Counted from the stretch's first letter, positions 15,901-53,231 are shown. The stretch: DNA of 63,204 nucleotides from Euprymna scolopes (GCA_053919585.1 CM132827.1), one strand, 5' to 3'. Translations and numbers: made by a program. Notes: generated by a model from the letters alone, not told the origin.

Positions 15901-16540
15901 AATGGTTTCCTTGGTTGGAATGTAGCGTCAAAGTTTTTGAATTTCTTTTCATCTATAATAATGTGGGAAGTTGCTCTTCGAAGCTGTGAAGCTCGGTTTT
16001 AAATATAGAGAATGCCAGTTCTTTGTTTCTGTGGGTTATGTAGATAGAAAAAGGGTCGAACTGGCTTGGTAATCCCTTTAATATCATTGCGATGATTAAA
16101 GCGTCATATATTGTTTATCCAGCATTTCTGAGGGCTGTTAAAACCGTTTCTGTTCTTATAATGTAGTCCATAATGCTTTCGCCAGTTTGCTTTTTAAGGG
16201 ATGTCAGTTGGCTATATAAAGAAATAACTCTCGGTTTTCCTTTTCCCGCGTAGTGTTTGTGTAATATTCCTAGGTCTTTTCTTCCATTATCGGCGGCTTC
16301 TCTCATTATCAGAGATAGGCTTTTATCATCCAGGAACTGTACAAGCTCCGCATAGGCTTCTTCGTTTCTCTCATCATCGTGTCCGTCTCTAACGGGATTT
16401 ATGCCTAAAATGACGTCTTTCAGGCCAAGCGTGTGTAGATGGCTTAAGAACTTAATTTCCCAAATTTCATATTTGGTTTCGTCCCTGTCGAATAGTAACC
16501 TGCTCCATCGGTTTCCATTATTACTCCTGGGCCCATAACC
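12910..16540 (-). pseudogene. Copia gag-pol polyprotein pseudogene with multiple stops and frameshifts
   Basis: ORF fragments: gag (RLLFDRDETKYEIWE), protease C-part, integrase (LVHSDIAGP, KILRSDNG), GKLDPK, RT (KYKARFVARG, QMDVKTA, WVDDL), RNase H region at about 12950-13450. Confidence 0.93.
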
Positions 16541-16710
16541 TGTTGAGTGGTGCATTTTAGGTGGAATTAAGATAGGAAATGGGTTAAGATTCAAAGGAGG
16601 AAATATAAACACGTGTGGACGGATAGAGAGAAGAAAATTTATTATAGGGCAAAAAGGGATTGTGGGATTTTTACAATAAAGGGGAGACAATCACAGGAAG
16701 AGTTCCAACA
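16541..16710 (-). repeat. Copia 5' LTR
   Basis: Followed on the minus strand by the PBS at 16527-16540. Confidence 0.95.
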
Positions 16711-17405: not shown

Positions 17406-17696
17406 ACCGGAAGTGGAAGAAGTGATTTTTAAGATACAGTCGACAGATCGATTTTTTTGGCACTTCTACAGAATTGAGACGAGATTTTGTGCTTGATATT
17501 TGGAGTTTTCAGATTAAAAAAAAAAAAAAAACCAATGGTTTCAACTGATTTCTTTTTCTCTTTTTTTTTTTTTGTCAATTCTAATAAGTTACAATGGTAG
17601 CTCCCAAATTATGCAGTCTAGATTACCTGAATATTACTGAATTATCAAACAAAAGAACTTTAATTGTGTTAGCAGGTGAAAATTGCCGCCATCTTG
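17406..17696. promoter_or_regulatory. candidate promoter motifs (ETS and YY1 consensus sites)
   Basis: ACCGGAAGTG at 17406-17415 and GCCGCCATCTTG at 17685-17696. Motif match only. Confidence 0.25.
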
Positions 17697-18369
17697 TTTA
17701 ACTCAAAACAGAAATCTACCTCCCTTTTAAACTCTCCCGTGTCTTATGATCGTTTTCATCAAATTCTTTTTTTTTCTTTAATAAATACTTTTCTACCTCA
17801 TCAATTTTCGTAATTTTGGGATATAATCATCTTTAAAAATACGGGGGATGCGATGCGTGCGTAGATATCATTGTTTTCATGTGAAATACAGTATTACAAT
17901 TTGCGAAAGTTCGTCCTGAAGCGGCGATTTTTTTTTAATAATATGGTGTTTTAACCAAAGAACAATAATACGTACTTAATTGTTATGCTGAAAATAGTTA
18001 TATATCGAACAATTACGAAAAATTACCGACTAGAAATTTATTTATAGTTAAAAGTAATTTTTATGGAAAATTGGGTAAAATCACGGCCACCGAGAGTAAG
18101 AAGAAGGCATGTTAACTGAAAAATGTCCGCAGGCAATGTAGATAAGATTTGTCAGACTGTCAGTACTACATGAGGGCCATTTGAAAAAGAGCAATAAAAC
18201 ATTTTTAAAAAGAAAAAGGAACACAGTTCGATTAATACTTAAACTGAACTTTATTCAATATAGAATATAAACATTATCTATATAAAATTAAGTAATTTTA
18301 AAGCAATATACAATTTAATACAGATAAAACTGAATTATAAATTTAGGGAACAAACAAAGAAACATTTTT

Positions 18370-20441: not shown

Positions 20442-21644
20442 ACCCAATAATTGTTTCTTTTGCAGTAAAAAAATAAATAAATAAAATGAAATATTCGACT
20501 TTCTCCAATAAAAATAAAAGTTCAAACACGAATTCACTTACGATATTTTGATTAAAATTATCCCAAATGTGCAATTATAATAATTATTTTCCGAATGAAC
20601 AATTGTTCTTTTTCTTTAGAACATACATGGACAATCGGTAACACATATTCGTAGCAATATTTTTTTATGCCTGTTAGCATGACCACGTGGTTGAATACCG
20701 GAAGCTGTCTATACCTACAACTTAAGTAGGAAGTAACGTTACGCTGTCACATCGGCCTTCTTTCTCGGTAGCCATGGTAAAATCGCATTTTTCTTCGATG
20801 ATATAAATTTGGCAATAGGGGGGCTAAATACAGGGGACATTACTCCGAAAGGAATAGTTCAGATAACTTGTGGTATAGCGACAATATTTGTTGCCTATAG
20901 TGATAGATTATTTTTATTATTATTAAAAACAAAATAACAGCTACTCGATGAATTTTCGTAATTTTTGGATGTACTACTATTTTCGACATCACAATTAAGT
21001 ACGTAATATTGTTTTTGCTTAAAATGATATATTTAAAAAAATCGATTTGTCGATTACAGCTTAACACACAACAAGCACCGTAATAGAGTTGAGTAGATAA
21101 AAGGGCGAATAACTCTGTCACCCCCAGAGTTACCCCCCTTGTACCAATAAACCGGTTCATAACTTAAGACTAGTGCAAATGCATTGTGGGTAATGCCATG
21201 GCACATTTCTTAGCATGTTTTCTTATGTCACCATCCTGACATCTGAAATATTCTAGATAACAAAAGAAAAGAATCAGGAAAGATGTAATTGTAAAAAAAA
21301 AAATCTTTTGTTTATTTAATACAATCTTGTTTTTCTTGACCGTAAAATTACGTCATAAAAATGTAAGTATAATTTGCAACTCATTTTTTTTCAGCTCATT
21401 GTTAATCACAGCTCATTTTTTTTTTTTAATTTTTAGAAATTAAATTCAAATTAATTTTTCCCCCTTTTAAATGCATTAATTTTTCAATTTAACACAAACT
21501 AACTAATTTAATTAAATTTCTCTGATTCTTTTATTTTTTTTTTTTTTTGTTGTTTTTTTAATACCGATTTTCGCTTAATAGGGACAAAATTATCTTTATT
21601 TCGGTTTGTTTACAATCCACGGGGGTACGTAAAAAGTCGTAAAA

Positions 21645-23444: not shown

Positions 23445-24165
23445 GGTACTTCTACAGTTTATCACCGAAAGTGGAGACGCCAGTTTTTGGGGACCTGTCG
23501 TCAAAATCAGAGGGAGAAATCAGTATTTTAAATTATTAATTTGTTGTTGACCCTTCAATGTTGCTTTCATTCGAAAAATGTTTCATTAAAATTATTTATT
23601 TGTTTGAAAAAAAATTGATTTTATAAATATCCAATGTGTCTTTAATTCAAAAATTGTTTTATTGAAATTATATTTTCTTACGTAGACTTTTCAACAAATG
23701 TCCTTACAATTATATTTTGATAAATTTTTATACAATAAATGTTTTGGTTTTCAAATGGCACTTGCCTGAATACGGCAGAAGTCCCAAAATATGTGTTTTT
23801 TCCTGTTATCAAGATTTATTTCTAAACAAAGAAAAAACATCCAGTTAAACGATTATCAATATGTACTTTTCATTTTCTGTTTTTAATAATAAAAATATAT
23901 ATATACATTTCATGAAAAACTTTCCCGTTTTCATTAATTAAATCGAATTATGGATATATGTTCTCTTTAACTTTCTTTATTTACTTTTTTTCATAGTTCT
24001 CTCCAGAAGTAGTTAATATCTAATCTAATTTTTTGTTATTTATTTCATATTTCAGTCATAGTTTAAAATATTGATTTCTCCCTCTGATTCTAATGACAGA
24101 TGCCCTCCCCCCGCCCAATGGTGTCTCCATTTTCAGCAATAAACTGTAGTAGTAGTAGTAGTACC
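23445..24165. mobile_element. Merlin-like MITE, 721 bp
   Basis: GGTACT...AGTACC ends, ~90-bp imperfect TIRs, 8-bp TSD AACATTTT / ATCATTTT. Confidence 0.75.
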
Positions 24166-24632: not shown

Positions 24633-27600
24633 ATGACATTAGGTTTAATCATAACATCAGGTTAATCATAACATCAGATTAATCATAACATCAGGTTAAT
24701 CATAACATCAGGTTTAATCATAACATCAGGTTAATCATAACATCAGGTTTAATCATAACATCAGGTTAATCATAACATCAGATTAATTATAACATTAGGT
24801 TTAATCATGCCACCAGGTTAATCATAACATCAGGTTAATCATAACATTAGGTTAATCATAACATCAGGTTAATCATAACATCAGGTTAATCATAACATTA
24901 GGTTTAATCATAACATCAGGTTAATCATAACATCAGGTTAATCATAACATCAGGTTAATCATAACATCAGGTTAATCATAACATCAGGTTAATCATGACA
25001 TCAGGTTAATCATAACATCAGGTTAATCATAACATCAGGTTAATCATAACATCAGGTTAATCATAACATCAGGTTTAATCATAACATCAGGTTAATCATG
25101 ACATCAGGTTAATCATAACATAAGGTAAATCATAACATCAGGTTAATCATAACATCAGGTTTAATCATAACATCAGGTTAATCATGACATCAGGTTAATC
25201 ATAACATCAGGTTAATCATAACATCAGGTTAATCATAACATCAGGTTAATCATAACATCAGGTTAATCATAACATCAGGTTTAATCATAACATCAGGTTA
25301 ATCATGACATCAGGTTAATCATAACATAAGGTAAATCATAACATCAGGTTAATCATAACATCAGGTTTAATCATAACATCAGGTTAATCATGACATCAGG
25401 TTAATCATAACATAAGGTAAATCATGACATCAGGTTAATCATAACATCAGGTTTAATCATAACATCAGGTTAATCATGACATCAGGTTAATCATGACATC
25501 AGGTTAATCATGACATCAGGTTAATCATAACATCAGGTTTAATCATAACATCAGGTAAATCATGACATCAGGTTTAATCATGACATCAGGTTAATCATAA
25601 CATAAGGTAAATCATAACATCAGGTTAATCATAACATCAGGTTTAATCATAACATCAGGTTAATCATGACATCAGGTTAATCATAACATCAGGTTAATCA
25701 TAACATCAGGTTAATCATAACATCAGGTTAATCATAACATCAGGTTAATCATAACATCAGGTTTAATCATAACATCAGGTTAATCATGACATCAGGTTAA
25801 TCATAACATAAGGTAAATCATAACATCAGGTTAATCATAACATCAGGTTTAATCATAACATCAGGTTAATCATGACATCAGGTTAATCATGACATCAGGT
25901 TAATCATGACATCAGGTTAATCATAACATCAGGTTTAATCATAACATCAGGTTAATCATGACATCAGGTTAATCATGACATCAGGTTAATCATGACATCA
26001 GGTTAATCATGACATCAGGTTAATCATGACATCAGGTTAATCATGACATCAGGTTAATCATAACATCAGGTTTAATCATAACATCAGGTTAATCATAACA
26101 TCAGGTTTAATCATAACATCAGGTTAATCATGACATCAGGTTAATCATGACATCAGGTTAATCATGACATCAGGTTAATCATGACATCAGGTTAATCATA
26201 ACATCAGGTTAATCATAACATCAAGTTAATCATAACATCAGGTTAATCATAACATCAGGTTAATCATGACATCAGGTTAATCATAACATCAGGTTTAATC
26301 ATAACATCAGGTTAATCATGACATCAGGTTAATCATAACATCAGGTTAATCATGACATCAGGTTTAATCATGACATCAGGTTAATCATGACATCAGGTAA
26401 ATCATGACATACGGTTAATCATGACATCAGGTTAATCATGACATCAGGTTAATCATGACATCAGGTTAATCATAACATCAGGGTAACCATGACATCAGGT
26501 TTATCATGACATCAGGTTAATCATGACATCAGGTTAATCATAACATCAGGTTAATCATGACATACGGTTAATCATGACATCAGGTTAATCATGACATCAG
26601 GTTAATCATGACATCAGGTTAATCATGACATCAGGTTAATCATAACATCAGGTTAATCATGACATCAGGTTAATCATAACATCAGGTTAATCATGACATA
26701 CGGTTAATCATGACATCAGGTTAATCATGACATCAGGTTAATCATGACATCAGGTTAATCATGACATCAGGTTAATCATAACATCAGGTTAATCATAACA
26801 TCAGGTTAATCATAACATCAGGTTAATCATAACATCAGGTTTAATCATAACATCAGGTTAATCATGACATCAGGTTAATCATAACATAAGGTAAATCATA
26901 ACATCAGGTTAATCATAACATCAGGTTTAATCATAACATCAGGTTAATCATGACATCAGGTTAATCATAACATCAGGTTAATCATAACATCAGGTTAATC
27001 ATGACATCAGGTTAATCATAACATCAGGTTAATCATGACATCAGGTTAATCATAACATCAGGTTAATCATGACATACGGTTAATCATGACATCAGGTTAA
27101 TCATAACATCAGGTTAATCATAACATCAGGTTAATCATGACATCAGGTTAATCATAACATCAGGTTAATCATAACATCAGGTTAATCATGACATCAGGTT
27201 AATCATGACATCAGGTTAATCATGACATCAGGTTAATCATGACATCAGGTTAATCATGACATCAGGTTAATCATGACATCAAGTTAATCATAACATCAGG
27301 TTAATCATGACATCAGGTTAATCATGACATCAGGTTAATCATAACATCAGGTTAATCATGACATCAGGTTAATCATGACATCAGGTTAATCATGACATCA
27401 GGTTAATCATGACATACGGTTAATCATAACATCAGGTAAATCATAACATCAGGTTAATCATAACATAAGGTAAATCATAACATCAGGTTAATCATAACAT
27501 CAGGTTTAATCATAACATCAGGTTAATCATGACATCAGGTTAATCATAACATCAGGTTAATCATAACATCAGGTTAATCATAACATCAGGTTAATCATGA

Positions 27601-30600
27601 CATCAGGTTAATCATAACATCAGGTTAATCATGACATCAGGTTAATCATGACATCAGGTTAATCATAACATCAGGTTAATCATAACCTCAGGTTAATCAT
27701 GACATCAGGTTAATCATAACATCAGGTTAATCATAACATCAGGTTAATCATGACATCAGGTTAATCATAACATCAGGTTAATCATGACATCAGGTTAATC
27801 ATGACATCAGGTTAATCATGACATCAGGTTAATCATGACATCAGGTTAATCATGACATCAGGTTAATCATGACATCAGGTTAATCATGACATCAGGTTAA
27901 TCATGACATCAGGTTAATCATGACATCAGGTAAATCATGACATCAGGTTAATCATGACATCAGGTTAATCATGACATCAGGTTAATCATGACATCAGGTT
28001 AATCATGACATCAGGTAAATCATGACATCAGGTTAATCATGACATCAGGTTAATCATGACATCAGGTTAATCATGACATCAGGTTAATCATGACATCAGG
28101 TTAATCATGACATCAGGTTAATCATAACATCAGGTTAATCATGACATCAGGTTAATCATGACATCAGGTTAATCATGACATCAGGTAAATCATGACATCA
28201 GGTAAATCATGACATCAGGTAAATCATGACATCAGGTTAATCATGACATCAGGTAAATCATGACATCAGGTTAATCATGACATCAGGTTAATCATGACAT
28301 CAGGTTAATCATGACATCAGGTAAATCATGACATCAGGTTAATCATGACATCAGGTAAATCATGACATCAGGTTAATCATGACATCAGGTTAATCATGAC
28401 ATCAGGTTAATCATGACATCAGGTTAATCATGACATCAGGTTAATCATGACATCAGGTTAATCATGACATCAGGTAAATCATGACATCAGGTTAATCATG
28501 ACATCAGGTAAATCATGACATCAGGTTAATCATGACATCAGGTTAATCATGACATCAGGTTAATCATGACATCAGGTTAATCATGACATCAGGTTAATCA
28601 TGACATCAGGTAAATCATGACATCAGGTTAATCATGACATCAGGTTAATCATGACATCAGGTAAATCATGACATCAGGTTAATCATGACATCAGGTTAAT
28701 CATGACATCAGGTTAATCATGACATCAGGTTAATCATGACATCAGGTAAATCATGACATCAGGTTAATCATGACATCAGGTTAATCATGACATCAGGTTA
28801 ATCATGACATCAGGTTAATCATGACATCAGGTTAATCATAACATCAGGTTAATCATGACATCAGGTTAATCATGACATCAGGTTAATCATGACATCAGGT
28901 AAATCATGACATCAGGTTAATCATGACATCAGGTTAATCATGACATCAGGTTAATCATGACATCAGGTTAATCATGACATCAGGTTAATCATGACATCAG
29001 GTTAATCATGACATCAGGTAAATCATGACATCAGGTTAATCATGACATCAGGTTAATCATGACATCAGGTTAATCATGACATACGGTTAATCATGACATC
29101 AGGTTAATCATGACATCAGGTAAATCATGACATCAGGTTAATCATGACATCAGGTTAATCATGACATACGGTTAATCATGACATCAGGTTAATCATGACA
29201 TCAGGTAAATCATGACATCAGGTTAATCATGACATCAGGTTAATCATGACATCAGGTAAATCATGACATCAGGTTAATCATGACATCAGGTTAATCATGA
29301 CATACGGTTAATCATGACATACGGTTAATCATGACATCAGGTTAATCATGACATCAGGTAAATCATGACATCAGGTTAATCATGACATCAGGTTTATCAT
29401 GACATACGGTTAATCATGACATCAGGTTAATCATGACATCAGGTAAATCATGACATCAGGTAAATCATAACATCAGGTTAATCATTACATACGGTTAATC
29501 ATGACATCAGGTTAATCATGACATCAGGTAAATCATGACATCAGGTTAATCATGACATCAGGTTAATCATGACATCAGGTTAATCATGACATACGGTTAA
29601 TCATGACATCAGGTTAATCATGACATCAGGTTAATCATAACATCAGGTTAATCATGACATACGGTTAATCATGACATCAGGTTAATCATGACATCAGGTT
29701 AATCATGACATCAGGTAAATCATGACATCAGGTTAATCATGACATCAGGTTAATCATGACATCAGGTAAATCATGACATCAGGTTAATCATGACATCAGG
29801 TTAATCATGACATCAGGTTAATCATAACATCAGGTAAATCATGACATCAGGTTAATCATGACATCAGGTAAATCATGACATCAGGTTAATCATAACATCA
29901 GGTTAATCATGACATACGGTTAATCATGACATCAGGTTAATCATGACATCAGGTTAATCATAACATCAGGTTAATCATGACATACGGTTAATCATGACAT
30001 CAGGTTAATCATGACATCAGGTTAATCATGACATCAGGTAAATCATGACATCAGGTAAATCATGACATCAGGTTAATCATGACATCAGGTTAATCATGAC
30101 ATCAGGTTAATCATAACATCAGGTTAATCATGACATACGGTTAATCATGACATCAGGTTAATCATGACATCAGGTAAATCATGACATCAGGTAAATCATG
30201 ACATCAGGTTAATCATGACATCAGGTTAATCATGACATCAGGTTAATCATAACATCAGGTTAATCATGACATCAGGTTAATCATAACATCAGGTTAATCA
30301 TGACATCAGGTTAATCATGACATCAGGTTAATCATGACATCAGGTAAATCATTACATCAGGTTAATCATGACATCAGGTAAATCATGACATCAGGTTAAT
30401 CATGACATCAGGTTAATCATGACATCAGGTTAATCATGACATACGGTTAATCATGACATCAGGTTAATCATGACATCAGGTAAATCATGACATCAGGTTA
30501 ATCATGACATACGGTTAATCATGACATCAGGTTAATCATGACATACGGTTAATCATGACATCAGGTTAATCATGACATCAGGTTAATCATGACATCAGGT

Positions 30601-33600
30601 TAATCATGACATACGGTTAATCATGACATACGGTTAATCATGACATCAGGTTAATCATGACATCAGGTTAATCATGACATCAGGTTAATCATGACATCAG
30701 GTTAATCATGACATCAGGTTAATCATGACATACGGTTAATCATGACATCAGGTTAATCATGACATCAGGTAAATCATGACATCAGGTTAATCATGACATC
30801 AGGTTAATCATGACATACGGTTAATCATGACATCAGGTTAATCATGACATCAGGTAAATCATGACATCAGGTTAATCATGACATCAGGTTAATCATGACA
30901 TCAGGTAAATCATGACATCAGGTTAATCATGACATCAGGTTAATCATGACATACGGTTAATCATGACATCAGGTTAATCATGACATCAGGTTAATCATGA
31001 CATCAGGTAAATCATGACATCAGGTTAATCATGACATCAGGTAAATCATGACATCAGGTTAATCATGACATCAGGTTTATCATGACATACGGTTAATCAT
31101 GACATACGGTTAATCATGACATCAGGTTAATCATGACATCAGGTTAATCATGACATCAGGTAAATCATGACATCAGGTAAATCATAACATCAGGTTAATC
31201 ATGACATACGGTTAATCATGACATCAGGTTAATCATGACATCAGGTAAATCATGACATCAGGTTAATCATGACATCAGGTAAATCATGACATCAGGTAAA
31301 TCATAACATCAGGTTAATCATGACATCAGGTTAATCATGACATACGGTTAATCATGACATCAGGTTAATCATGACATCAGGTAAATCATGACATCAGGTT
31401 AATCATGACATCAGGTTAATCATGACATACGGTTAATCATGACATCAGGTTAATCATGACATACGGTTAATCATGACATCAGGTTAATCATGACATCAGG
31501 TTAATCATGACATCAGGTAAATCATGACATCAGGTAAATCATAACATCAGGTTAATCATGACATACGGTTAATCATGACATCAGGTTAATCATGACATCA
31601 GGTAAATCATGACATCAGGTTAATCATGACATCAGGTTAATCATGACATCAGGTTAATCATGACATCAGGTAAATCATGACATCAGGTAAATCATAACAT
31701 CAGGTTAATCATGACATCAGGTTAATCATGACATACGGTTAATCATGACATCAGGTTAATCATGACATCAGGTAAATCATGACATCAGGTTAATCATGAC
31801 ATCAGGTTAATCATGACATACGGTTAATCATGACATCAGGTTAATCATGACATACGGTTAATCATGACATCAGGTTAATCATGACATCAGGTTAATCATG
31901 ACATCAGGTAAATCATGACATCAGGTAAATCATAACATCAGGTTAATCATGACATACGGTTAATCATGACATACGGTTAATCATGACATACGGTTAATCA
32001 TGACATCAGGTTAATCATGACATCAGGTTAATCATGACATCAGGTAAATCATGACATCAGGTAAATCATAACATCAGGTTAATCATGACATACGGTTAAT
32101 CATGACATACGGTTAATCATGACATACGGTTAATCATGACATACGGTTAATCATGACATCAGGTTAATCATGACATCAGGTTAATCATGACATCAGGTAA
32201 ATCATGACATCAGGTAAATCATAACATCAGGTTAATCATGACATACGGTTAATCATGACATCAGGTTAATCATGACATCAGGTTAATCATGACATCAGGT
32301 AAATCATGACATCAGGTTAATCATGACATCAGGTTAATCATGACATACGGTTAATCATGACATCAGGTTAATCATGACATACGGTTAATCATGACATCAG
32401 GTTAATCATGACATACGGTTAATCATGACATCAGGTTAATCATGACATCAGGTTAATCATGACATCAGGTAAATCATGACATCAGGTTAATCATGACATA
32501 CGGTTAATCATGACATACGGTTAATCATGACATACGGTTAATCATGACATCAGGTTAATCATGACATACGGTTAATCATGACATCAGGTAAATCATGACA
32601 TCAGGTTAATCATGACATCAGGTAAATCATGACATCAGGTTAATCATGACATACGGTTAATCATGACATCAGGTTAATCATGACATACGGTTAATCATGA
32701 CATCAGGTTAATCATGACATCAGGTTAATCATGACATCAGGTAAATCATGACATCAGGTTAATCATGACATACGGTTAATCATGACATCAGGTTAATCAT
32801 GACATACGGTTAATCATGACATACGGTTAATCATGACATCAGGTTAATCATGACATACGGTTAATCATGACATCAGGTTAATCATGACATACGGTTAATC
32901 ATGACATACGGTTAATCATGACATCAGGTTAATCATGACATACGGTTAATCATGACATCAGGTTAATCATGACATACGGTTAATCATGACATACGGTTAA
33001 TCATGACATCAGGTTAATCATGACATACGGTTAATCATGACATCAGGTTAATCATGACATACGGTTAATCATGACATCAGGTTAATCATGACATCAGGTT
33101 AATCATGACATCAGGTAAATCATGACATACGGTTAATCATGACATCAGGTTAATCATGACATACGGTTAATCATGACATCAGGTTAATCATGACATACGG
33201 TTAATCATGACATCAGGTTAATCATGACATCAGGTTAATCATGACATCAGGTTAATCATGACATACGGTTAATCATGACATACGGTTAATCATGACATCA
33301 GGTTAATCATGACATACGGTTAATCATGACATCAGGTTAATCATGACATACGGTTAATCATGACATCACGTTAATCATGACATCAGGTTAATCATGACAT
33401 ACGGTTAATCATGACATCAGGTTAATCATGACATACGGTTAATCATGACATCAGGTTAATCATGACATACGGTTAATCATGACATCAGGTTAATCATGAC
33501 ATACGGTTAATCATGACATCAGGTTAATCATGACATCAGGTTAATCATGACATCAGGTTAATCATGACATCAGGTTAATCATGACATCAGGTTAATCATG

Positions 33601-36600
33601 ACATACGGTTAATCATGACATACGGTTAATCATGACATCAGGTTAATCATGACATACGGTTAATCATGACATCAGGTTAATCATGACATACGGTTAATCA
33701 TGATATCAGGTTAATCATGACATCAGGTTAATCATGACATCAGGTTAATCATGACATCAGGTTAATCATGACATACGGTTAATCATGACATCAGGTTAAT
33801 CATGACATACGGTTAATCATGACATACGGTTAATCATGACATCAGGTTAATCATGACATACGGTTAATCATGACATCAGGTTAATCATGACATACGGTTA
33901 ATCATGACATCAGGTTAATCATGACATCAGGTTAATCATGACATCAGGTTAATCATGACATCAGGTTAATCATGACATCAGGTTAATCATGACATACGGT
34001 TAATCATGACATCAGGTTAATCATGACATACGGTTAATCATGACATACGGTTAATCATGACATCAGGTTAATCATGACATACGGTTAATCATGACATCAG
34101 GTTAATCATGACATACGGTTAATCATGACATCAGGTTAATCATGACATCAGGTTAATCATGACATACGGTTAATCATGACATCAGGTTAATCATGACATA
34201 CGGTTAATCATGACATCAGGTTAATCATGACATACGGTTAATCATGACATCAGGTTAATCATGACATCAGGTTAATCATGACATCAGGTAAATCATGACA
34301 TACGGTTAATCATGACATCAGGTTAATCATGACATACGGTTAATCATTACATACGGTTAATCATGACATCAGGTTAATCATGACATACGGTTAATCATGA
34401 CATCAGGTTAATCATGACATACGGTTAATCATGACATCAGGTTAATCATGACATCAGGTTAATCATGACATCAGGTTAATCATGACATCAGGTTAATCAT
34501 GACATCAGGTTAATCATGACATACGGTTAATCATGACATCAGGTTAATCATGACATACGGTTAATCATGACATCAGGTTAATCATGACATCAGGTTAATC
34601 ATGACATACGGTTAATCATGACATCAGGTTAATCATGACATACGGTTAATCATGACATCAGGTTAATCATGACATCAGGTATATCATGACATACGGTTAA
34701 TCATGACATCAGGTTAATCATGACATACGGTTAATCATGACATCAGGTTAATCATGACATACGGTTAATCATGACATACGGTTAATCATGACATCAGGTT
34801 AATCATGACATACGGTTAATCATGACATCAGGTTAATCATGACATACGGTTAATCATGACATACGGTTAATCATGACATCAGGTTAATCATGACATACGG
34901 TTAATCATGACATCAGGTTAATCATGACATACGGTTAATCATGACATCAGGTTAATCATGACATCAGGTTAATCATGACATCAGGTTAATCATGACATCA
35001 GGTAAATCATGACATCAGGTTAATCATGACATACGGTTAATCATGACATACGGTTAATCATGACATACGGTTAATCATGACATCAGGTTAATCATTTCAT
35101 CAGGTTAATCATGACATCAGGTTAATCATGACATACGGTTAATCATGACATACGGTTAATCATGACATACGGTTAATCATGACATCAGGTTAATCATGAC
35201 ATCAGGTAAATCATGACATCAGGTTAATCATGACATCAGGTAAATCATGACATCAGGTTAATCATGACATCAGGTTAATCATGACATACGGTTAATCATG
35301 ACATCAGGTAAATCATGACATCAGGTTAATCATGACATCAGGTAAATCATGACATCAGGTTAATCATGACATACGGTTAATCATGACATCAGGTAAATCA
35401 TGACATACGGTTAATCATGACATCAGGTTAATCATGACATCAGGTTAATCATGACATCAGGTTAATCATGACATCAGGTAAATCATTACATCAGGTTAAT
35501 CATGACATCAGGTAAATAATGACATCAGGTTAATCATGACATACGGTTAATCATGACATCAGGTAAATCATGACATCAGGTTAATCATGACATCAGGTTA
35601 ATCATGACATCAGGTTAATCATGACATCAGGTTAATCATGACATACGGTTAATCATGACATCAGGTTAATCATGACATCAGGTAAATCATGACATCAGGT
35701 TAATCATGACATCAGGTTAATCATGACATCAGGTAAATCATGACATCAGGTTAATCATGACATCAGGTAAATCATGACATCAGGTTAATCATGACATCAG
35801 GTTAATCATGACATCAGGTAAATCATGACATCAGGTTAATCATGACATCAGGTTAATCATGACATCAGGTAAATCATGACATCAGGTTAATCATGACATC
35901 AGGTAAATCATGACATCAGGTAAATCATGACATCAGGTTAATCATGACATCAGGTAAATCATGACATCAGGTTAATCATGACATCAGGTTAATCATGACA
36001 TCAGGTAAATCATGACATCAGGTTAATCATTACATCAGGTAAATCATGACATCAGGTAAATCATGACATCAGGTTAATCATGACATCAGGTAAATCATGA
36101 CATCAGGTTAATCATGACATCAGGTTAATCATGACATCAGGTAAATCATGACATCAGGTTAATCATTACATCAGGTAAATCATGACATCAGGTAAATCAT
36201 GACATCAGGTTAATCATGACATCAGGTAAATCATGACATCAGGTTAATCATGACATCAGGTTAATCATGACATCAGGTTAATCATGACATACGGTTAATC
36301 ATGACATCAGGTAAATCATGACATCAGGTTAATCATGACATCAGGTAAATCATGACATCAGGTTAATCATGACATACGGTTAATCATGACATACGGTTAA
36401 TCATGACATCAGGTTAATCATGACATACGGTTAATCATGACATCAGGTTAATCATGACATCAGGTAAATCATGACATCAGGTAAATCATGACATCAGGTT
36501 AATCATGACATCAGGTAAATCATGACATAAGGTTAATCATGACATCAGGTTAATCATGACATCAGGTAAATCATGACATCAGGTTAATCATGACATCAGG

Positions 36601-39600
36601 TTAATCATGACATCAGGTAAATCATGACATCAGGTTAATCATGACATCAGGTAAATCATGACATCAGGTAAATCATGACATCAGGTTAATCATGACATCA
36701 GGTAAATCATGACATCAGGTAAATCATGACATCAGGTTAATCATGACATCAGGTAAATCATGACATCAGGTTAATCATGACATAAGGTTAATCATGACAT
36801 CAGGTTAATCATGACATACGGTTAATCATGACATACGGTTAATCATGACATCAGGTTAATCATGACATACGGTTAATCATGACATCAGGTTAATCATGAC
36901 ATCAGGTAAATCATGACATCAGGTAAATCATGACATCAGGTTAATCATGACATCAGGTAAATCATGACATCAGGTAAATCATGACATCAGGTAAATCATG
37001 ACATCAGGTTAATCATGACATCAGGTAAATCATGACATCAGGTAAATCATGACATCAGGTTAATCATGACATCAGGTAAATCATGACATCAGGTAAATCA
37101 TGACATCAGGTAAATCATGACATCAGGTTAATCATGACATCAGGTAAATCATGACATCAGGTAAATCATGACATCAGGTTAATCATGACATCAGGTAAAT
37201 CATGACATCAGGTTAATCATGACATACGGTTAATCATGACATCAGGTTAATCATGACATCAGGTAAATCATGACATCAGGTAAATCATGACATCAGGTTA
37301 ATCATGACATCAGGTAAATCATGACATCAGGTTAATCATGACATCAGGTTAATCATGACATCAGGTAAATCATGACATACGGTTAATCATGACATCAGGT
37401 TAATCATGACATACGGTTAATCATGACATCAGGTTAATGATGACATCAGGTAAATCATGACATCAGGTTAATCATGACATCAGGTTAATCATGACATCAG
37501 GTAAATCATGACATCAGGTTAATCATGACATCAGGTAAATCATGACATCAGGTTAATCATGACATCAGGTTAATCATGACATCAGGTAAATCATGACATC
37601 AGGTAAATCATGACATCAGGTTAATCATGACATCAGGTAAATCATGAAATCAGGTTAATCATGACATCAGGTTAATCATGACATCAGGTTAATCATGACA
37701 TACGGTTAATCATGACATCAGGTAAATCATGACATCAGGTTAATCATGACATCAGGTAAATCATGACATCAGGTTAATCATGACATACGGTTAATCATGT
37801 CATACGGTTAATCATGACATCAGGTTAATCATGACATACGGTTAATCATGACATCAGGTTAATCATGACATCAGGTAAATCATGACATCAGGTAAATCAT
37901 GACATCAGGTTAATCATGACATACGGTTAATCATGACATACGGTTAATCATGACATCAGGTTAATCATGACATACGGTTAATCATGACATCAGGTTAATC
38001 ATGACATCAGGTAAATCATGACATCAGGTTAATCATAACATCAGGTTAATCATGACATCAGGTAAATCATGACATCAGGTAAATCATGACATCAGGTAAA
38101 TCATGACATCAGGTTAATCATGACATCAGGTTAATCATGACATCAGGTTAATCATGACATCAGGTTAATCATGACATCAGGTTAATCATGACATCAGGTT
38201 AATCATGACATCAGGTTAATCATGACATCAGGTAAATCATGACATCAGGTTAATCATGACATCAGGTTAATCATGACATCAGGTTAATCATGACATCAGG
38301 TAAATCATGACATCAGGTAAATCATGACATCAGGTTAATCATGACATCAGGTAAATCATGACATCAGGTTAATCATGACATCAGGTTAATCATGACATAC
38401 GGTTAATCATGACATCAGGTAAATCATGACATCAGGTTAATCATGACATCAGGTTAATCATGACATCAGGTTAATCATGACATACGGTTAATCATGACAT
38501 ACGGTTAATCATGACATCAGGTTAATCATGACATACGGTTAATCATGACATCAGGTTAATCATGACATCAGGTAAATCATGACATCAGGTAAATCATGAC
38601 ATCAGGTTAATCATGACATCAGGTAAATCATGACATCAGGTTAATCATGACATACGGTTAATCATGACATACGGTTAATAATGACATCAGGTTAATCATG
38701 ACATACGGTTAATCATGACATCAGGTTACTCATGACATACGGTTAATCATGACATCAGGTTAATCATGACATACGGTTAATCATGACATCAGGTTAATCA
38801 TGACATCAGGTAAATCATGACATCAGGTTAATCATAACATCAGGTTAATCATGACATCAGGTAAATCATGACATCAGGTTAATCATGACATCAGGTTTAT
38901 CATGACATCAGGTAAATCATGACATCAGGTTAATCATGACATCAGGTTAATCATGACATCAGGTAAATCATGACATCAGGTAAATCATGACATCAGGTTA
39001 ATCATGACATCAGGTAAATCATGACATCAGGTTAATCATGACATCAGGTTAATCATGACATACGGTTAATCATGACATCAGGTAAATCATGACATCAGGT
39101 TAATCATGACATCAGGTAAATCATGACATCAGGTTAATCATGACATACGGTTAATCATGACATACGGTTAATCATGACATCAGGTTAATCATGACATACG
39201 GTTAATCATGACATCAGGTTAATCATGACATCAGGTAAATCATGACATCAGGTAAATCATGACATCAGGTTAATCATGACATCAGGTAAATCATGACATC
39301 AGGTTAATCATGACATACGGTTAATCATGACATCAGGTTAATCATGACATACGGTTAATCATGACATCAGGTTAATCATGACATCAGGTAAATCATGACA
39401 TCAGGTTAATCATGACATCAGGTAAATCATGACATCAGGTTAATCATGACATACGGTTAATCATGACATCAGGTTAATCATGACATACGGTTAATCATGA
39501 CATCAGGTTAATCATGACATCAGGTAAATCATGACATCAGGTTAATCATGACATCAGGTAAATCATGACATCAGGTTAATCATGACATACGGTTAATCAT

Positions 39601-42600
39601 GACATCAGGTTAATCATGACATACGGTTAATCATGACATCAGGTTAATCATGACATCAGGTTAATCATGACATCAGGTTTATCATGACATACGGTTAATC
39701 ATGACATACGGTTAATCATGACATCAGGTTAATCATGACATACGGTTAATCATGACATCAGGTTAATCATGACATACGGTTAATCATGACATACGGTTAA
39801 TCATGACATCAGGTTAATCATGACATACGGTTAATCATGACATCAGGTTAATCATGACATACGGTTAATCATGACATACGGTTAATCATGACATCAGGTT
39901 AATCATGACATCAGGTTAATCATGACATCAGGTTAATCATGACATCAGGTAAATCATGACATCAGGTAAATCATGACATCAGGTAAATCATGACATCAGG
40001 TTAATCATGACATCAGGTTAATCATGACATCAGGTAAATCATGACATCAGGTAAATCATGACATCAGGTAAATCATGACATCAGGTAAATCATTACATCA
40101 GGTTAATCATGACATCAGGTTAATCATGACATACGGTTAATCATGACATACGGTTAATCATGACATCAGGTTAATCATGACATCAGGTTAATCATGACAT
40201 CAGGTAAATCATGACATCAGGTAAATCATGACATCAGGTAAATCATGACATCAGGTTAATCATGACATCAGGTAAATCATGACATCAGGTAAATCATGAC
40301 ATCAGGTAAATCATGACATCAGGTAAATCATGACATACGGTTAATCATGACATCAGGTTAATCATGACATCAGGTTAATCATGACATACGGTTAATCATG
40401 ACATCAGGTTAATCATGACATCAGGTAAATCATGACATCAGGTAAATCATGACATCAGGTAAATCATGACATCAGGTAAATCATGACATCAGGTAAATCA
40501 TGACATACGGTTAATCATGACATCAGGTTAATCATGACATCAGGTTAATCATGACATACGGTTAATCATGACATCAGGTAAATCATGACATCAGGTAAAT
40601 CATGACATCAGGTAAATCATGACATCAGGTAAATCATGACATCAGGTAAATCATGACATACGGTTAATCATGACATCAGGTAAATCATGACATCAGGTTA
40701 ATCATGACATCAGGTTAATCATGACATACGGTTAATCATGACATACGGTTAATCATGACATCAGGTTAATCATGACATACGGTTAATCATGACATCAGGT
40801 TAATCATGACATACGGTTAATCATGACATACGGTTAATCATGACATCAGGTTAATCATGACATACGGTTAATCATGACATCAGGTTAATCATGACATACG
40901 GTTAATCATGACATACGGTTAATCATGACATCAGGTTAATCATGACATCAGGTTAATCATGACATCAGGTTAATCATGACATCAGGTAAATCATGACATC
41001 AGGTAAATCATGACATCAGGTAAATCATGACATCAGGTTAATCATGACATCAGGTTAATCATGACATCAGGTTAATCATGACATCAGGTTAATCATGACA
41101 TCAGGTAAATCATGACATCAGGTAAATCATGACATCAGGTAAATCATGACATACGGTTAATCATGACATCAGGTTAATCATGACATCAGGTTAATCATGA
41201 CATCAGGTTAATCATGACATCAGGTTAATCATGACATCAGGTAAATCATGACATCAGGTAAATCATGACATCAGGTTAATCATGACATCAGGTTAATCAT
41301 GACATCAGGTAAATCATGACATCAGGTTAATCATGACATACGGTTAATCATGACATACGGTTAATCATGACATCAGGTTAATCATGACATACGGTTAATC
41401 ATGACATCAGGTTAATCATGACATACGGTTAATCATGACATCAGGTTAATCATGACATCAGGTAAATCATGACATCAGGTTAATCATGACATCAGGTAAA
41501 TCATGACATCAGGTTAATCATGACATACGGTTAATCATGACATCAGGTTAATCATGACATCAGGTAAATCATGACATCAGGTTAATCATGACATCAGGTT
41601 AATCATGACATCAGGTTAATCATGACATACGGTTAATCATGACATACGGTTAATCATGACATCAGGTTAATCATGACATACGGTTAATCATGACATAAGG
41701 TTAATCATGACATACGGTTAATCATGACATCAGGTTAATCATGACATACGGTTAATCATGACATCAGGTTAATCATGACATCAGGTTAATCATGACATAC
41801 GGTTAATCATGACATCAGGTTAATCATGACATCAGGTTAATCATGACATCAGGTAAATCATGACATCAGGTTAATCATGACATACGGTTAATCATGACAT
41901 CAGGTTAATCATGACATACGGTTAATCATGACATCAGGTTAATCATGACATCAGGTTAATCATGACATACGGTTAATCATGACATCAGGTTAATCATGAC
42001 ATACGGTTAATCATGACATCAGGTTAATCATGACATACGGTTAATCATGACATCAGGTTAATCATGACATCAGGTTAATCATGACATACGGTTAATCATG
42101 ACATCAGGTTAATCATGACATCAGGTTAATCATGACATCAGGTTAATCATGACCTACGGTTAATCATGACATCAGGTTAATCATGACATCAGGTTAATCA
42201 TGACATCAGGTTAATCATGACATCAGGTTAATCATGACATCAGGTTAATCATGACATACGGTTAATCATGACATCAGGTTAATCATGACATCAGGTTAAT
42301 CATGACATCAGGTTAATCATGACATCAGGTTAATCATGACATCAGGTAAATCATGACATCAGGTAAATCATGACATCAGGTAAATCATGACATCAGGTAA
42401 ATCATGACATCAGGTTAATCATGACATCAGGTAAATCATGACATCAGGTTAATCATGACATACGGTTAATCATGACATACGGTTAATCATGACATCAGGT
42501 TAATCATGACATCAGGTTAATCATGACATCAGGTAAATCATGACATCAGGTAAATCATGACATACGGTTAATCATGACATCAGGTTAATCATGACATCAG

Positions 42601-45600
42601 GTAAATCATGACATCAGGTAAATCATGACATACGGTTAATCATGACATCAGGTTAATCATGACATCAGGTTAATCATGACATCAGGTAAATCATGACATC
42701 AGGTAAATCATGACATCAGGTAAATCATGACATCAGGTTAATCATGACATCAGGTAAATTATGACATCAGGTTAATCATGACATACGGTTAATCATGACA
42801 TACGGTTAATCATGACATCAGGTTAATCATGACATCAGGTTAATCATGACATCAGGTAAATCATGACATCAGGTAAATCATGACATACGGTTAATCATGA
42901 CATCAGGTAAATCATGACATCAGGTTAATCATGACATCAGGTAAATCATGGCATACGGTTAATCATGACATCAGGTTAATCATGACATCAGGTTAATCAT
43001 GACATCAGGTTAATCATGACATCAGGTAAATCATGACATCAGGTAAATCATGACATCAGGTAAATCATGACATACGGTTAATCATGACATCAGGTTAATC
43101 ATGACATCAGGTTAATCATGACATCAGGTTAATCATGACATCAGGTTAATCATGACATCAGGTTAATCATGACATCAGGTAAATCATGACATCAGGTAAA
43201 TCATGACATCAGGTTAATCATGACATCAGGTTAATCATGACATACGGTTAATCATGACATACGGTTAATCATGACATCAGGTTAATCATGACATCAGGTT
43301 AATCATGACATCAGCTAAATCATGACATCAGGTAAATCATGACATCAGGTAAATCATGACATACGGTTAATCATGACATCAGGTTAATCATGACATCAGG
43401 TTAATCATGACATACGGTTAATCATGACATCAGGTAAATCATGACATCAGGTTAATCATGACATCAGGTTAATCATGACATACGGTTAATCATGACATCA
43501 GGTTAATCATGACATCAGGTTAATCATGACATCAGGTAAATCATGACATCAGGTTAATCATGACATACGGTTAATCATGACATACGGTTAATCATGACAT
43601 CAGGTTAATCATGACATACGGTTAATCATGACATACGGTTAATCATGACATCAGGTTAATCATGACATACGGTTAATCATGACATACGGTTAATCATGAC
43701 ATACGGTTAATCATGACATCAGGTTAATCATGACATACGGTTAATCATGACATCAGGTTAATCATGACATACGGTTAATCACGACATACGGTTAATCATG
43801 ACATCAGGTTAATCATGACATCAGGTTAATCATGACATCAGGTTAATCATGACATCAGGTAAATCTTGACATCAGGTTAATCATGACATCAGGTTAATCA
43901 TGACATCAGGTAAATCATGACATCAGGTTAATCATGACATACGGTTAATCATGACATCAGGTTAATCATGACATCAGGTTAATCATGACATCAGGTTAAT
44001 CATGACATCAGGTAAATCATGACATCAGGTTAATCATGACATCAGGTTAATCATGACATCAGGTAAATCATGACATCAGGTTAATCATGACATCAGGTTA
44101 ATCATGACATCAGGTTAATCATGACATCAGGTTAATCATAACATCAGGTTAATCATGACATCAGGTAAATCATGACATCAGGTTAATCATGACATCAGGT
44201 TAATCATGACATCAGGTTAATCATGACATCAGGTTAATCATGACATCAGGTAAATCATGACATCAGGTAAATCATGACATACGGTTAATCATGACATCAG
44301 GTTAATCATGACATCAGGTTAATCATGACATCAGGTAAATCATGACATACGGTTAATCATGACATCAGGTTAATCATGACATCAGGTTAATCATGACATA
44401 CGGTTAATCATGACATCAGGTAAATCATGACATACGGTTAATCATGACATCAGGTAAATCATGACATCAGGTAAATCATGACATCAGGTAAATCATGACA
44501 TCAGGTTAATCATGACATCAGGTTAATCATGACATCAGGTAAATCATGACATCAGGTTAATCATGACATACGGTTAATCATGACATACGGTTAATCATGA
44601 CATCAGGTTAATCATGACATCAGGTTAATCATGACATCAGGTAAATCATGACATCAGGTTAATCATGACATCAGGTAAATCATGACATCAGGTTAATCAT
44701 GACATACGGTTAATCATGACATCAGGTTAATCATGACATACGGTTAATCATGACATCAGGTTAATCATGACATCAGGTTAATCATGACATACGGTTAATC
44801 ATGACATACGGTTAATCATGACATCAGGTTAATCATGACATACGGTTAATCATGACATCAGGTTAATCATGACATACGGTTAATCATGACATACGGTTAA
44901 TCATGACATCAGGTTAATCATGACATACGGTTAATCATGACATCAGGTTAATCATGACATACGGTTAATCATGACATACGGTTAATCATGACATCAGGTT
45001 AATCATGACATCAGGTTAATCATGACATCAGGTAAATCATGACATCAGGTTAATCATGACATACGGTTAATCATGACATCAGGTTAATCATGACATACGG
45101 TTAATCATGACATCAGGTTAATCATGACATCAGGTAAATCATGACATCAGGTTAATCATGACATACGGTTAATCATGACATCAGGTTAATCATGACATAC
45201 GGTTAATCATGACATCAGGTTAATCATGACATCAGGTTAATCATGACATACGGTTAATCATGACATCAGGTAAATCATGACATCAGGTTAATCATGACAT
45301 ACGGTTAATCATGACATCAGGTTAATCATGACATCAGGTTAATCATGACATCAGGTAAATCATGACATCAGGTTAATCATGACATACGGTTAATCATGAC
45401 ATCAGGTTAATCATGACATCAGGTTAATCATGACATACGGTTAATCATGACATCAGGTTTATCATGACATCAGGTAAATCATGACATCAGGTTAATCATG
45501 ACATACGGTTAATCATGACATCAGGTTAATCATGACATCAGGTTAATTATGACATCAGGTTAATCATGACATACGGTTAATCATGACATCAGGTTAATCA

Positions 45601-46745
45601 TGACATCAGGTAAATCATGACATCAGGTTAATCATGACATACGGTTAATCATGACATCAGGTTAATCATGACATCAGGTTAATAATGACATCAGGTTAAT
45701 CATGACATACGGTAAATCATGACATCAGGTAAATCATGACATCAGGTAAATCATGACATCAGGTTAATCATGACATCAGGTTAATCATAACATCAGGGTA
45801 ACCATGACATCAGGTTTATCATGACATCAGGTTAATCATGACATCAGGTTAATCATAACATCAGGTTAATCATGACATACGGTTAATCATGACATCAGGT
45901 TAATCATGACATCAGGTTAATCATAACATCAGGTTAATCATGACATCAGGTTAATCATGACATCAGGTTAATCATGACATCAGGTTAATCATAACATCAG
46001 GTTAATCATGACATCAGGTTAATCATAACATCAGGTTAATCATAACATCAGGTTAATCATGACATCAGGTTAATCATGACATCAGGTTAATCATAACATC
46101 AGGTTAATCATGACATCAGGTTAATCATAACATCAGGTTAATCATGACATCAGGTTAATCATGACATCAGGTTAATCATGACATCAGGTTAATCATGACA
46201 TCAGGTTAATCATAACATCAGGTTAATCATAACATCAGGTTAATTATAACATCAGGTTAATCATGACATCAGGTAAATCATGACATCAGGTAAATCATGA
46301 CATCAGGTTAATCATGACATCAGGTTAATCATAACATCAGGTTAATCATAACATCAGGTTAATCATGACATCAGGTTAATCATGACATCAGGTAAATCAT
46401 GACATACGGTTAATCATAACATCAGGTTAATCATGACATCAGGTTAATCATAACATCAGGTTAATCATAACATCAGGTTAATCATGACATCAGGTTAATC
46501 ATAACATCAGGGTAACCATGACATCAGGTTTATCATGACATCAGGTTAATCATGACATCAGGTTAATCATGACATCAGGTTTAATCATGACATCAGGTTA
46601 ATCATAACATCAGGTTAATCATAACATCAGGTTAATCATGACATCAGGTTTAATCATAACATCAGGTTAATCATAACATCAGATTAATTATAACATCAGG
46701 TTAATCATACCATCAGATTAATTATAACATCAGGTTAATCATAAC
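24633..46745. repeat. satellite array, 17-bp monomer TTAATCATGACATCAGG, ~22.1 kb, ~1,300 copies
   Basis: Uninterrupted head-to-tail array. Main variants: ATAAC/ATGAC, GGTTAA/GGTAAA, CATCAGG/CATACGG and an 18-bp GGTTTAA form. Confidence 0.99.
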
Positions 46746-46959
46746 TGATGTGATGTTCATTTATGAAATATTAGTCAATAGTATTTTTGCTAAGGTTTTA
46801 CAAGTTCCACAACCTAAAATCATTGAGGTGGGTGATTACATCTTCCTGAACATTTTAAAGTGCATCAGGTTAATCGTTCGTCCATCCAGCATGGTTTTAG
46901 CTGAGATTGAACTCACTACATGAGTTTGTAGTGTAATTCAAATCTTGTCAGTAGCTTCT

Positions 46960-52253: not shown

Positions 52254-52409
52254 TAGTCTAATCGAATAAAGGCCTATCAAACAATATTTTATTTGTCATC
52301 AAGCATAAATAATAATATAGTTTAGTTAAGCTAAACGTAATTTACGTCTTTTTAGTAATAACAACATTTCTGGAAGTTGTTCTACTGTTTTTATTTATTT
52401 ACAGATACG

Positions 52410-53231
52410 ATGTCTGAGCTAAAAGAGGAGAAACCGTTTTCCTGTGAACTTTGTGGATCTTCATTTTTAAAAAGGTTTCAGCTGAACAGACACGTGTCTA
52501 AACACAATCAAGAGAAACCATTTTCATGTGAAATATGTGGGGCTTCATTTTCTTATGCATCACATATCAAACGACACGTGCGTATACACACGGGGGAGAA
52601 ACCATTTTCTTGTGAAATATGTGGATCTTCATTTTGCAATAAAGCACCTCTCCAACGTCACATGCGTGTACACACTGGAGAGAAACCATTTTGCTGTGAA
52701 ATATGTGGATGTTCGTTTGCTGATAAATTAACTTTGATGAATCACACTCGAACTCACACTGGAGAGAAACCATTTTCATGTGAAACTTGTGGGGTTTCAT
52801 TTGCGCGGAAATATTCGTTGATTACCCACATTCGTACACATACTGGCGAGAGGCCGTTTACCTGCGAAATTTGTGAATCTTCATTTTCTGAAAAATCAAC
52901 GTTGACTGAACACATGCGTATGCATACGGGGGAGAAACCATATGCCTGCGAAATATGTGGATCTTCATTTTCTCGAAAATCACACTTGATCACCCACAAT
53001 CGTACACACACTGGGGATAGACCGTTTTCCTGTGAAATTTGTGAATCTTCATTTGTTGACAAATCAACTTTGACCAGACACATACGTATACACACTGGCG
53101 AGAAACCATTCTCATGTGACATTTGTGGATTTTCTGCTTCTCAGAAATCAAATTTAAAAAATCACATGCGTATACACACAAACCTCGAGCAACAGGCAGC
53201 ATCTGATGGGCTCCCAGAATCCAAACGTTAA
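52410..53231 (+). CDS. tandem C2H2 (Kruppel-type) zinc-finger protein, 9 fingers, 273 aa from the ATG at 52410
   Basis: Nine CxxC-x12-HxxxH units with HTGEKPF-type linkers in an open frame. Pyrimidine tract plus CAG acceptor at 52404 just upstream implies an upstream exon. Confidence 0.93.
   Translation: MSELKEEKPFSCELCGSSFLKRFQLNRHVSKHNQEKPFSCEICGASFSYASHIKRHVRIHTGEKPFSCEICGSSFCNKAPLQRHMRVHTGEKPFCCEICGCSFADKLTLMNHTRTHTGEKPFSCETCGVSFARKYSLITHIRTHTGERPFTCEICESSFSEKSTLTEHMRMHTGEKPYACEICGSSFSRKSHLITHNRTHTGDRPFSCEICESSFVDKSTLTRHIRIHTGEKPFSCDICGFSASQKSNLKNHMRIHTNLEQQAASDGLPESKR

Follow-up and report, generated by a model that had tools for sequence, protein, structure and literature searches.

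Tandem arrays carry older units at their ends. For satellites, it has been reported that central repeats homogenise more than array ends (PMC5615363), and whether a kinetochore is required for the layered growth of satellites is treated as an open question by Altemose et al. (bioRxiv 10.1101/2021.07.12.452052), who also consider, citing non-centromeric arrays, that expansion may be neutral. Among shorter arrays, minisatellites are given a unit size of about 9-100 bp, and strand annealing between sisters has been proposed for one of them, MSY1 (PMC2599865). Human VNTR alleles are described as differing mainly by duplications and deletions, and one human VNTR as varying chiefly in its middle (PMC8327921; the Discussion of that paper prints CACNA1A for a citation given elsewhere as CACNA1C).

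Here we analysed a 63,204-nt stretch of the Euprymna scolopes genome (hereafter, the window), which lies at 36.33-36.40 Mb on a 71.0-Mb contig of a 5.9-Gb assembly. As the original prediction had it, the window holds an array of about 22 kb with a period of 17 bp; Tandem Repeats Finder reports it as one array at 24633-46742 with 1,299 copies.

24633..46745, + strand: the complete array of the 17-bp minisatellite, with 1,299 monomers arranged head to tail in one orientation

Segmentation into the 1,299 monomers found no N, inversion or insertion within the array and distinguished 44 monomer types, four of them common. Over the whole array, plain ATGAC accounts for 618 units, CATACGG for about 245, GGTAAA for 240 and ATAAC for 111. 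The common 18-bp type comprises 18 monomers, and besides it there are 39 rarer types, 28 of which are singletons.

The array is confined to a single locus. In the 5.9-Gb genome all 288 matches to a 32-base dimer pattern and 734 of the 743 matches to a 15-mer pattern fall within it, which rules out a genome-wide satellite family; the nine off-array 15-mer matches are scattered singles, and a backwards control gave five. About 270 bp of the left flank and about 125 bp of the right flank match only themselves in the genome, with dispersed repeats starting outside these unique segments, and neither flank has a second match within 400 kb around the window. A transposon-derived tandem repeat is likewise contradicted, since the unit and its adjoining flanks are not part of a dispersed element. 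Beyond the right end lies one further fragment.

46863..46875, + strand: a lone 13-base monomer piece, about 120 bp past the array end

The surroundings are those of a C2H2 zinc-finger cluster: across 400 kb around the window, 12 additional exons of this type occur. Such clusters are a known trait of coleoid cephalopods (PMC9068888). No larger satellite was found in the same 400 kb, and many unrelated minisatellites lie within 200 kb on either side, the largest of 4.8 kb. The kinship of a neighbouring 34-bp array with the 17-bp array is marginal. Being a 22-kb single locus among zinc-finger genes, the array is therefore a minisatellite of the VNTR type and not a satellite family. Its unit size, its one locus with unique flanks and its interspersed variant repeats all agree with this assignment.

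52405..53231, + strand: C2H2 zinc-finger coding exon of 273 aa, 5.7 kb downstream of the array (neighbouring context)

RNA depth on this exon starts at about 52405, right after an AG and on the + strand, in two of four runs and on very few reads (13, 9, 0 and 1 per run, most of them continuing as paralogs); from these few reads no upstream exon of the gene was found. Of 577 matches in a protein search, the 120 listed are generic C2H2 proteins only, none exceeding 53% identity. A zinc-finger paralog 62 kb upstream is 88% identical, but the likeness begins only at 52301, so it does not carry an ancestral copy of the array. Two guessed exon or promoter sites (20560-20780 and 23950-24155) turned out to be dispersed repeats, as did the right part of a third (17455-17760), and Rfam gave 0 matches in 16000-56000. 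The best DNA run carries 0.49 of the words from the flank and array start; runs with a word share below 0.2 were left out of account.

Change-point analysis of the monomer string was used to set the borders within the array, and it reveals a shell-core-shell layout.

24633..27783, + strand: left shell, 184 units, having a gradual inner border and small higher-order blocks and containing 23 of the array's 25 18-bp units
27784..45786, + strand: core, 1,059 units, patchy, scrambled and not mirror-symmetric
45787..46740, + strand: right shell, 56 units

The flanks had been expected to be rich in ATAAC and the core to be nearly all ATGAC, and this is what the counts say: ATAAC makes up 59% of the left shell and 43% of the right shell, but only 20 of the 1,059 core units. 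Plain ATGAC contributes 553 core units, CATACGG about 246 and GGTAAA 240. These are arranged in patches, which follow one another in the order plain/GGTAAA, mixed, plain/CATACGG and mixed again according to change-point analysis, and the longest exact repeat inside the core spans 20 units (340 bp). The two borders differ in character. On the left, ATAAC declines from 79% in the first 72 units to 46% in the rest of the shell and to 3% past the gradual inner border, whereas on the right it rises abruptly, from 1% to 43%, precisely where the second GGGTAACC marker stands.

Rare signatures tie the two ends together. The combination GGGTAACC..GGTTTATC is present at the three places where it had been noticed, in monomers starting at 26472, 45787 and 46501, and defines the following features together with the terminal units.

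26438..26607, + strand: J1, first 10-monomer marker block with GGGTAACC..GGTTTATC
45753..45922, + strand: J2, second 10-monomer marker block, at the sharp right border of the core
45787..46500, + strand: J2-J3 block, 42 units, an ATAAC/ATGAC part followed by a short GGTAAA and CATACGG patch
46501..46745, + strand: right terminal 14 units, with the third J marker, two 18-bp units and two CAGAT units
24633..24806, + strand: left terminal units carrying the variants CAGAT (G>A) and CATTAGG, probably the oldest layer

At least five matching monomers had been claimed for the first two markers; in fact 10 monomers, from 26438 and 45753, are identical. The CAGAT (G>A) variant occurs only at monomer indices 2, 8, 1295 and 1297 (on a scale of 0-1298), so that the terminal units and the 10-unit block alike place rare signatures at both ends in the same orientation, as predicted. 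Local alignment of the left and right parts scores 24.7, compared with a maximum of 19.2 in 100 shuffles and 12.1 for the reversed order. The J1-J2 interval is 1,136 units long (77 units plus the 1,059-unit core), and its parts follow the same order as those of the J2-J3 block. Judging from this order, the J2-J3 block would be the unexpanded homolog of the J1-J2 interval, and the core the expanded homolog of its patch.

The claim of symmetric layers fared worse. The shells comprise 184 and 56 units, the core carries no mirror signal, and the 18-bp form, although present in both flanks as described, is lopsided, with 23 units on the left against 2 on the right. Over the whole array mirror correlation is absent from the profiles of CATACGG (r -0.24 to -0.72) and GGTAAA (r -0.08 to 0.04), and within the core alone their mirror scores are -0.02 and 0.01, with 58-69% of circular shifts equal or higher. 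The ATAAC state alone mirrors (r 0.53-0.81). Asymmetry of the quantified variant frequencies had been named in advance as evidence against the prediction, and CATACGG and GGTAAA display it.

Since terminal CAGAT units and markers are common to both ends, three nested ages can be read from the array: the terminal units, the ATAAC shell and the core. Singletons number 9 of 240 units in the shells versus 19 of 1,059 in the core (p=0.08), which faintly hints that the core may be younger than the shell. Inside the core a youngest part at the centre is not detectable: from left to right, its thirds hold 2, 8 and 9 singletons, the fewest thus being in the left third and not in the middle, and a KS test gives p=0.04 for singletons and 0.25 for all 35 rare units. 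The core has accumulated about 1.1 private changes per kb. Set against a heterozygosity of 1.2% in another species, a squid (PMC9068888), this suggests a young core and hence a length that may vary among individuals, a rough estimate because copying erases singletons.

Based on these observations, we favor, with a probability of about 60%, the view that this single-locus 17-bp minisatellite gained its long core when one small off-centre patch was copied locally again and again. The ancestor might have been a short ATAAC-rich array of some 160-250 units with rare ATGAC, GGTAAA and CATACGG units. A block beginning at the GGGTAACC marker would have been duplicated, and in one of the copies the variant-bearing patch would then have undergone several hundred small duplications, each of about 4 units, together with short conversion-like copying, and so have expanded about 70-fold. 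The route, which we propose by carrying over the suggestion made for MSY1, may have been slippage in replication or repair by strand annealing between sister chromatids. Growth in place keeps the order of units, and old variants would therefore be left stranded at both ends. The seed would have been off-centre (184:56), and an unexpanded homolog of the seed patch appears to survive in the right shell. The expansion was most likely neutral, with no need for a centromere or a protein-binding role. Because a single allele is at hand, the order and timing of growth are something we infer.

Growth simulations are consistent with a focal process. In all of them ancestors were modelled on the present shells, which is an assumption, and new mutation was omitted. 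The core departs from shuffles in being more repetitive (fractions of distinct 8/12/16-mers 0.63/0.90/0.97, patchiness about 3.8). Among 24 coarsely spaced settings, limited to runs that retained both variants, its word statistics came closest to simulations using blocks of around 4 units and about 265-530 events, whether or not short conversion was included. Under uniform growth, a marker-free gap of at least 80% appeared in 1 of 5,600 runs, and a core of at least 75% in 72 of 8,400, none of which kept the marker block. A strict, tag-based test of intactness (the other marker tests were letter-based) was passed by 1 of 4,200 runs. Against this, a lenient criterion let through 159 of 2,400; every one of them had started from a small ancestor and used 16-unit blocks, and the median was 52 marker copies versus the 3 observed. 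Simulated uniform growth almost never yields the lopsided layout, and growth was therefore likely focal. Together with the same-orientation end markers, this supports the part of the original prediction that had an old array split by internal growth. The other part, growth from the middle in the manner of centromeric satellites, is not supported: the array has a single shell and a handful of terminal units, the seed appears off-centre and the core lacks nested layers.

A tentative alternative, which we consider possible but clearly less probable than local copying, is that the right shell was added late. A long-core allele, perhaps the product of one-sided growth, would have undergone a single unequal exchange with a short allele or a sister at the marker block, and both the end-to-end likeness and the sharp border would stem from that one exchange. 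This would account for a right border lying no more than 2 units from the marker while the left one is gradual, and for the identical 170-bp block on both sides of the interval. In human minisatellite mutants, moreover, duplications can flank inserted segments. In simulations of a single-marker allele that grew uniformly and was later spliced, 0-244 of 1,000 runs passed depending on the setting, a score that covers marker and position only and not composition. However, 16-unit blocks, on which the best of these settings rely, match the core poorly, and a near-pure ATGAC core would still require a tiny seed, core and marker having occurred together in 0 of 8,400 uniform runs from shell-like ancestors.

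It is improbable, in our view, that the ATGAC variant itself drove the growth. At each junction, the change from ATAAC to ATGAC gives rise to a TCATGA palindrome, and ATGAC runs that are long and unbroken might be unstable and outgrow the rest. TCATGA is indeed kept in all three core types; the predicted folding energy of six units shifts from -3.6 to -7.3 kcal/mol (bottom strand) and from -6.6 to -7.8 kcal/mol (top strand); and ATGA runs reach 167 units in the core as opposed to at most 7 in the shells. Nonetheless, such long runs are expected from any expansion, and the predicted structures are weak, their centroids being mostly open. Compared with shuffles, the core has no folding advantage (z -0.3 to -1.0), so that a hairpin driver is not supported; it is the shell that folds better than its own shuffles (z -4.9, -3.0). 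A purity-feedback model succeeds in part: of its 240 runs, 143 produce a large core, but all except 2 of the 240 disturb the marker blocks. For the trigger of local copying, a chance positional focus is as good an explanation.

Still less probable is a centromere-like process, in which successive central waves would be linked to a kinetochore or some other selected binding site. The three nested ages and the position of the locus close to the midpoint of the contig could be taken in its favor, but the core has no mirror layers, its centre is not poorer in private variants, a single 22-kb locus falls short in size with the next largest array nearby at 4.8 kb, and the 400 kb around the window offer zinc-finger exons instead of a larger satellite. 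Finally, we give hardly any credence to an assembly artefact (a collapsed or falsely expanded array, or a switch between haplotypes at the marker block): although the array is known from the assembly alone and two haplotypes could have been joined at the 170-bp repeat where the sharp border lies, there is no gap, the 28 private variants are spread along the array, the immediate flanks are unique and, unlike in a false duplication, the longest exact internal repeat is far below long-read length.

As to significance, older variants at array ends and internal growth of VNTRs have already been described, and one allele cannot fix the mechanism; taken as an ordinary case, the array would be of modest value as a tidy natural example. 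A bolder reading, which we hold to be rather unlikely, would see in it a centromere-free, single-copy miniature of layered expansion, where a patch of about 15 units grew about 70-fold beside its unexpanded twin, in which case one allele would record both the before and the after of expansion. If the ATGAC variant were the trigger, one base change would have made a quiet minisatellite self-amplifying, and neutral layered expansion would become directly testable with a clonable 17-bp unit. In any case, being fully resolved, confined to one locus and equipped with internal markers, the array offers a convenient neutral reference for layered growth, and long-read amplicons could be used to type it across individuals.

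A literature search by topic rather than by sequence, mostly of papers outside subscription, showed no paper on this array among those listed; PMC5932611 proved of little relevance. The human minisatellites and VNTRs as described in PMC2599865 and PMC8327921 (MSY1; CACNA1C, WDR7, VPS53) resemble it in having one locus, a short unit and few base-substitution variants in blocked or interspersed order, and probably also in changing by small duplications and conversions and in combining fixed and variable segments within one array; in the CACNA1C VNTR, the variability is in the repeat's middle (PMC8327921). The differences are that the studied MSY1 allele has 77 units versus 1,299 here and that the present array belongs to an invertebrate genome. 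The satellite edge effect, by which the centre homogenises more efficiently and the ends keep divergent variants (PMC5615363), is also similar, but here the non-expanded part extends 184 units inward on one side. This reach, and the fact that a marker block 107 units in from the left end is intact, call for more than a simple edge effect. With human alpha-satellite (bioRxiv 10.1101/2021.07.12.452052) the array would have in common older variants around a newer interior and seeding from within-array variants. Alpha-satellite, however, is described as forming higher-order arrays on the megabase scale that are mirror-symmetric and carry CENP-A on their young layers, in contrast to 22 kb of a 17-bp unit with one lopsided shell, no mirror layers and a gene-cluster setting. 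The array thus has the checked features of variant-repeat minisatellites and lacks the symmetry and size of centromeric layered expansion.

In the core of the 17-bp array (window 27784-45786), the CATACGG and GGTAAA variants avoid each other: they share only one unit, and adjacencies between them were observed 15 and 16 times, versus 53 expected in each case. Rare changes within the same core fall mainly on two bases of the TCATGA palindrome, its C and its G: eight units, on three backgrounds, show G>T at unit position 3, and unit position 17 carries six singleton changes. These changes at the palindrome might reflect either recurrent mutation or short conversion.

At its right end, the array runs into a further structure:

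window 46726-46757, imperfect inverted repeat formed by the last unit of the 17-bp array with the flank

Its predicted folding energy is -6 kcal/mol (z -1.7), and the repeat may be a remnant of how the array arose.

The window also holds two transposon-derived features:

window 13502-16690, minus strand, broken Ty1/copia-type element with an RVT_2 match
window 61760-62545, plus strand, Tc1/mariner-type transposase frame with an HTH_Tnp_Tc3_2 match below the curated cut-off

Interrupted frames that adjoin the RVT_2 match resemble integrase and gag, and a stretch of N (window 61499-61662) adjoins the transposase frame.

On a larger scale, the contig carries two further features:

G000:C45:36.13-36.60 Mb, C2H2 zinc-finger cluster of 13 coding exons
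G000:C45:36213567-36218377 (position 1567-6377 of locus L059), 4.8-kb tandem array of 34-bp units

A close paralog of the zinc-finger exon in the window (52301-53179), with a protein sequence 88% identical, lies 62 kb upstream in the same orientation (locus L070). Numerous unrelated minisatellites lie within the cluster; among 19 arrays chosen by hand (period at least 17; zinc-finger repeats, AT-dinucleotide types and long units with few copies omitted), 12 are upstream of the nearest zinc-finger exon, which is not significant.

The 34-bp array is separated from the main array by 140 kb, and no homology was found between the flanks of the two. Both arrays contain TCAGG and AATCATGA. The two halves of the 34-bp unit agree at 9 of 17 positions, which gives it the look of a dimer of two 17-bp halves. 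The unit matches the ATAAC monomer of the main array at 20 of 34 (p=0.03; p=0.07 for the ATGAC monomer; shuffles, both uncorrected).
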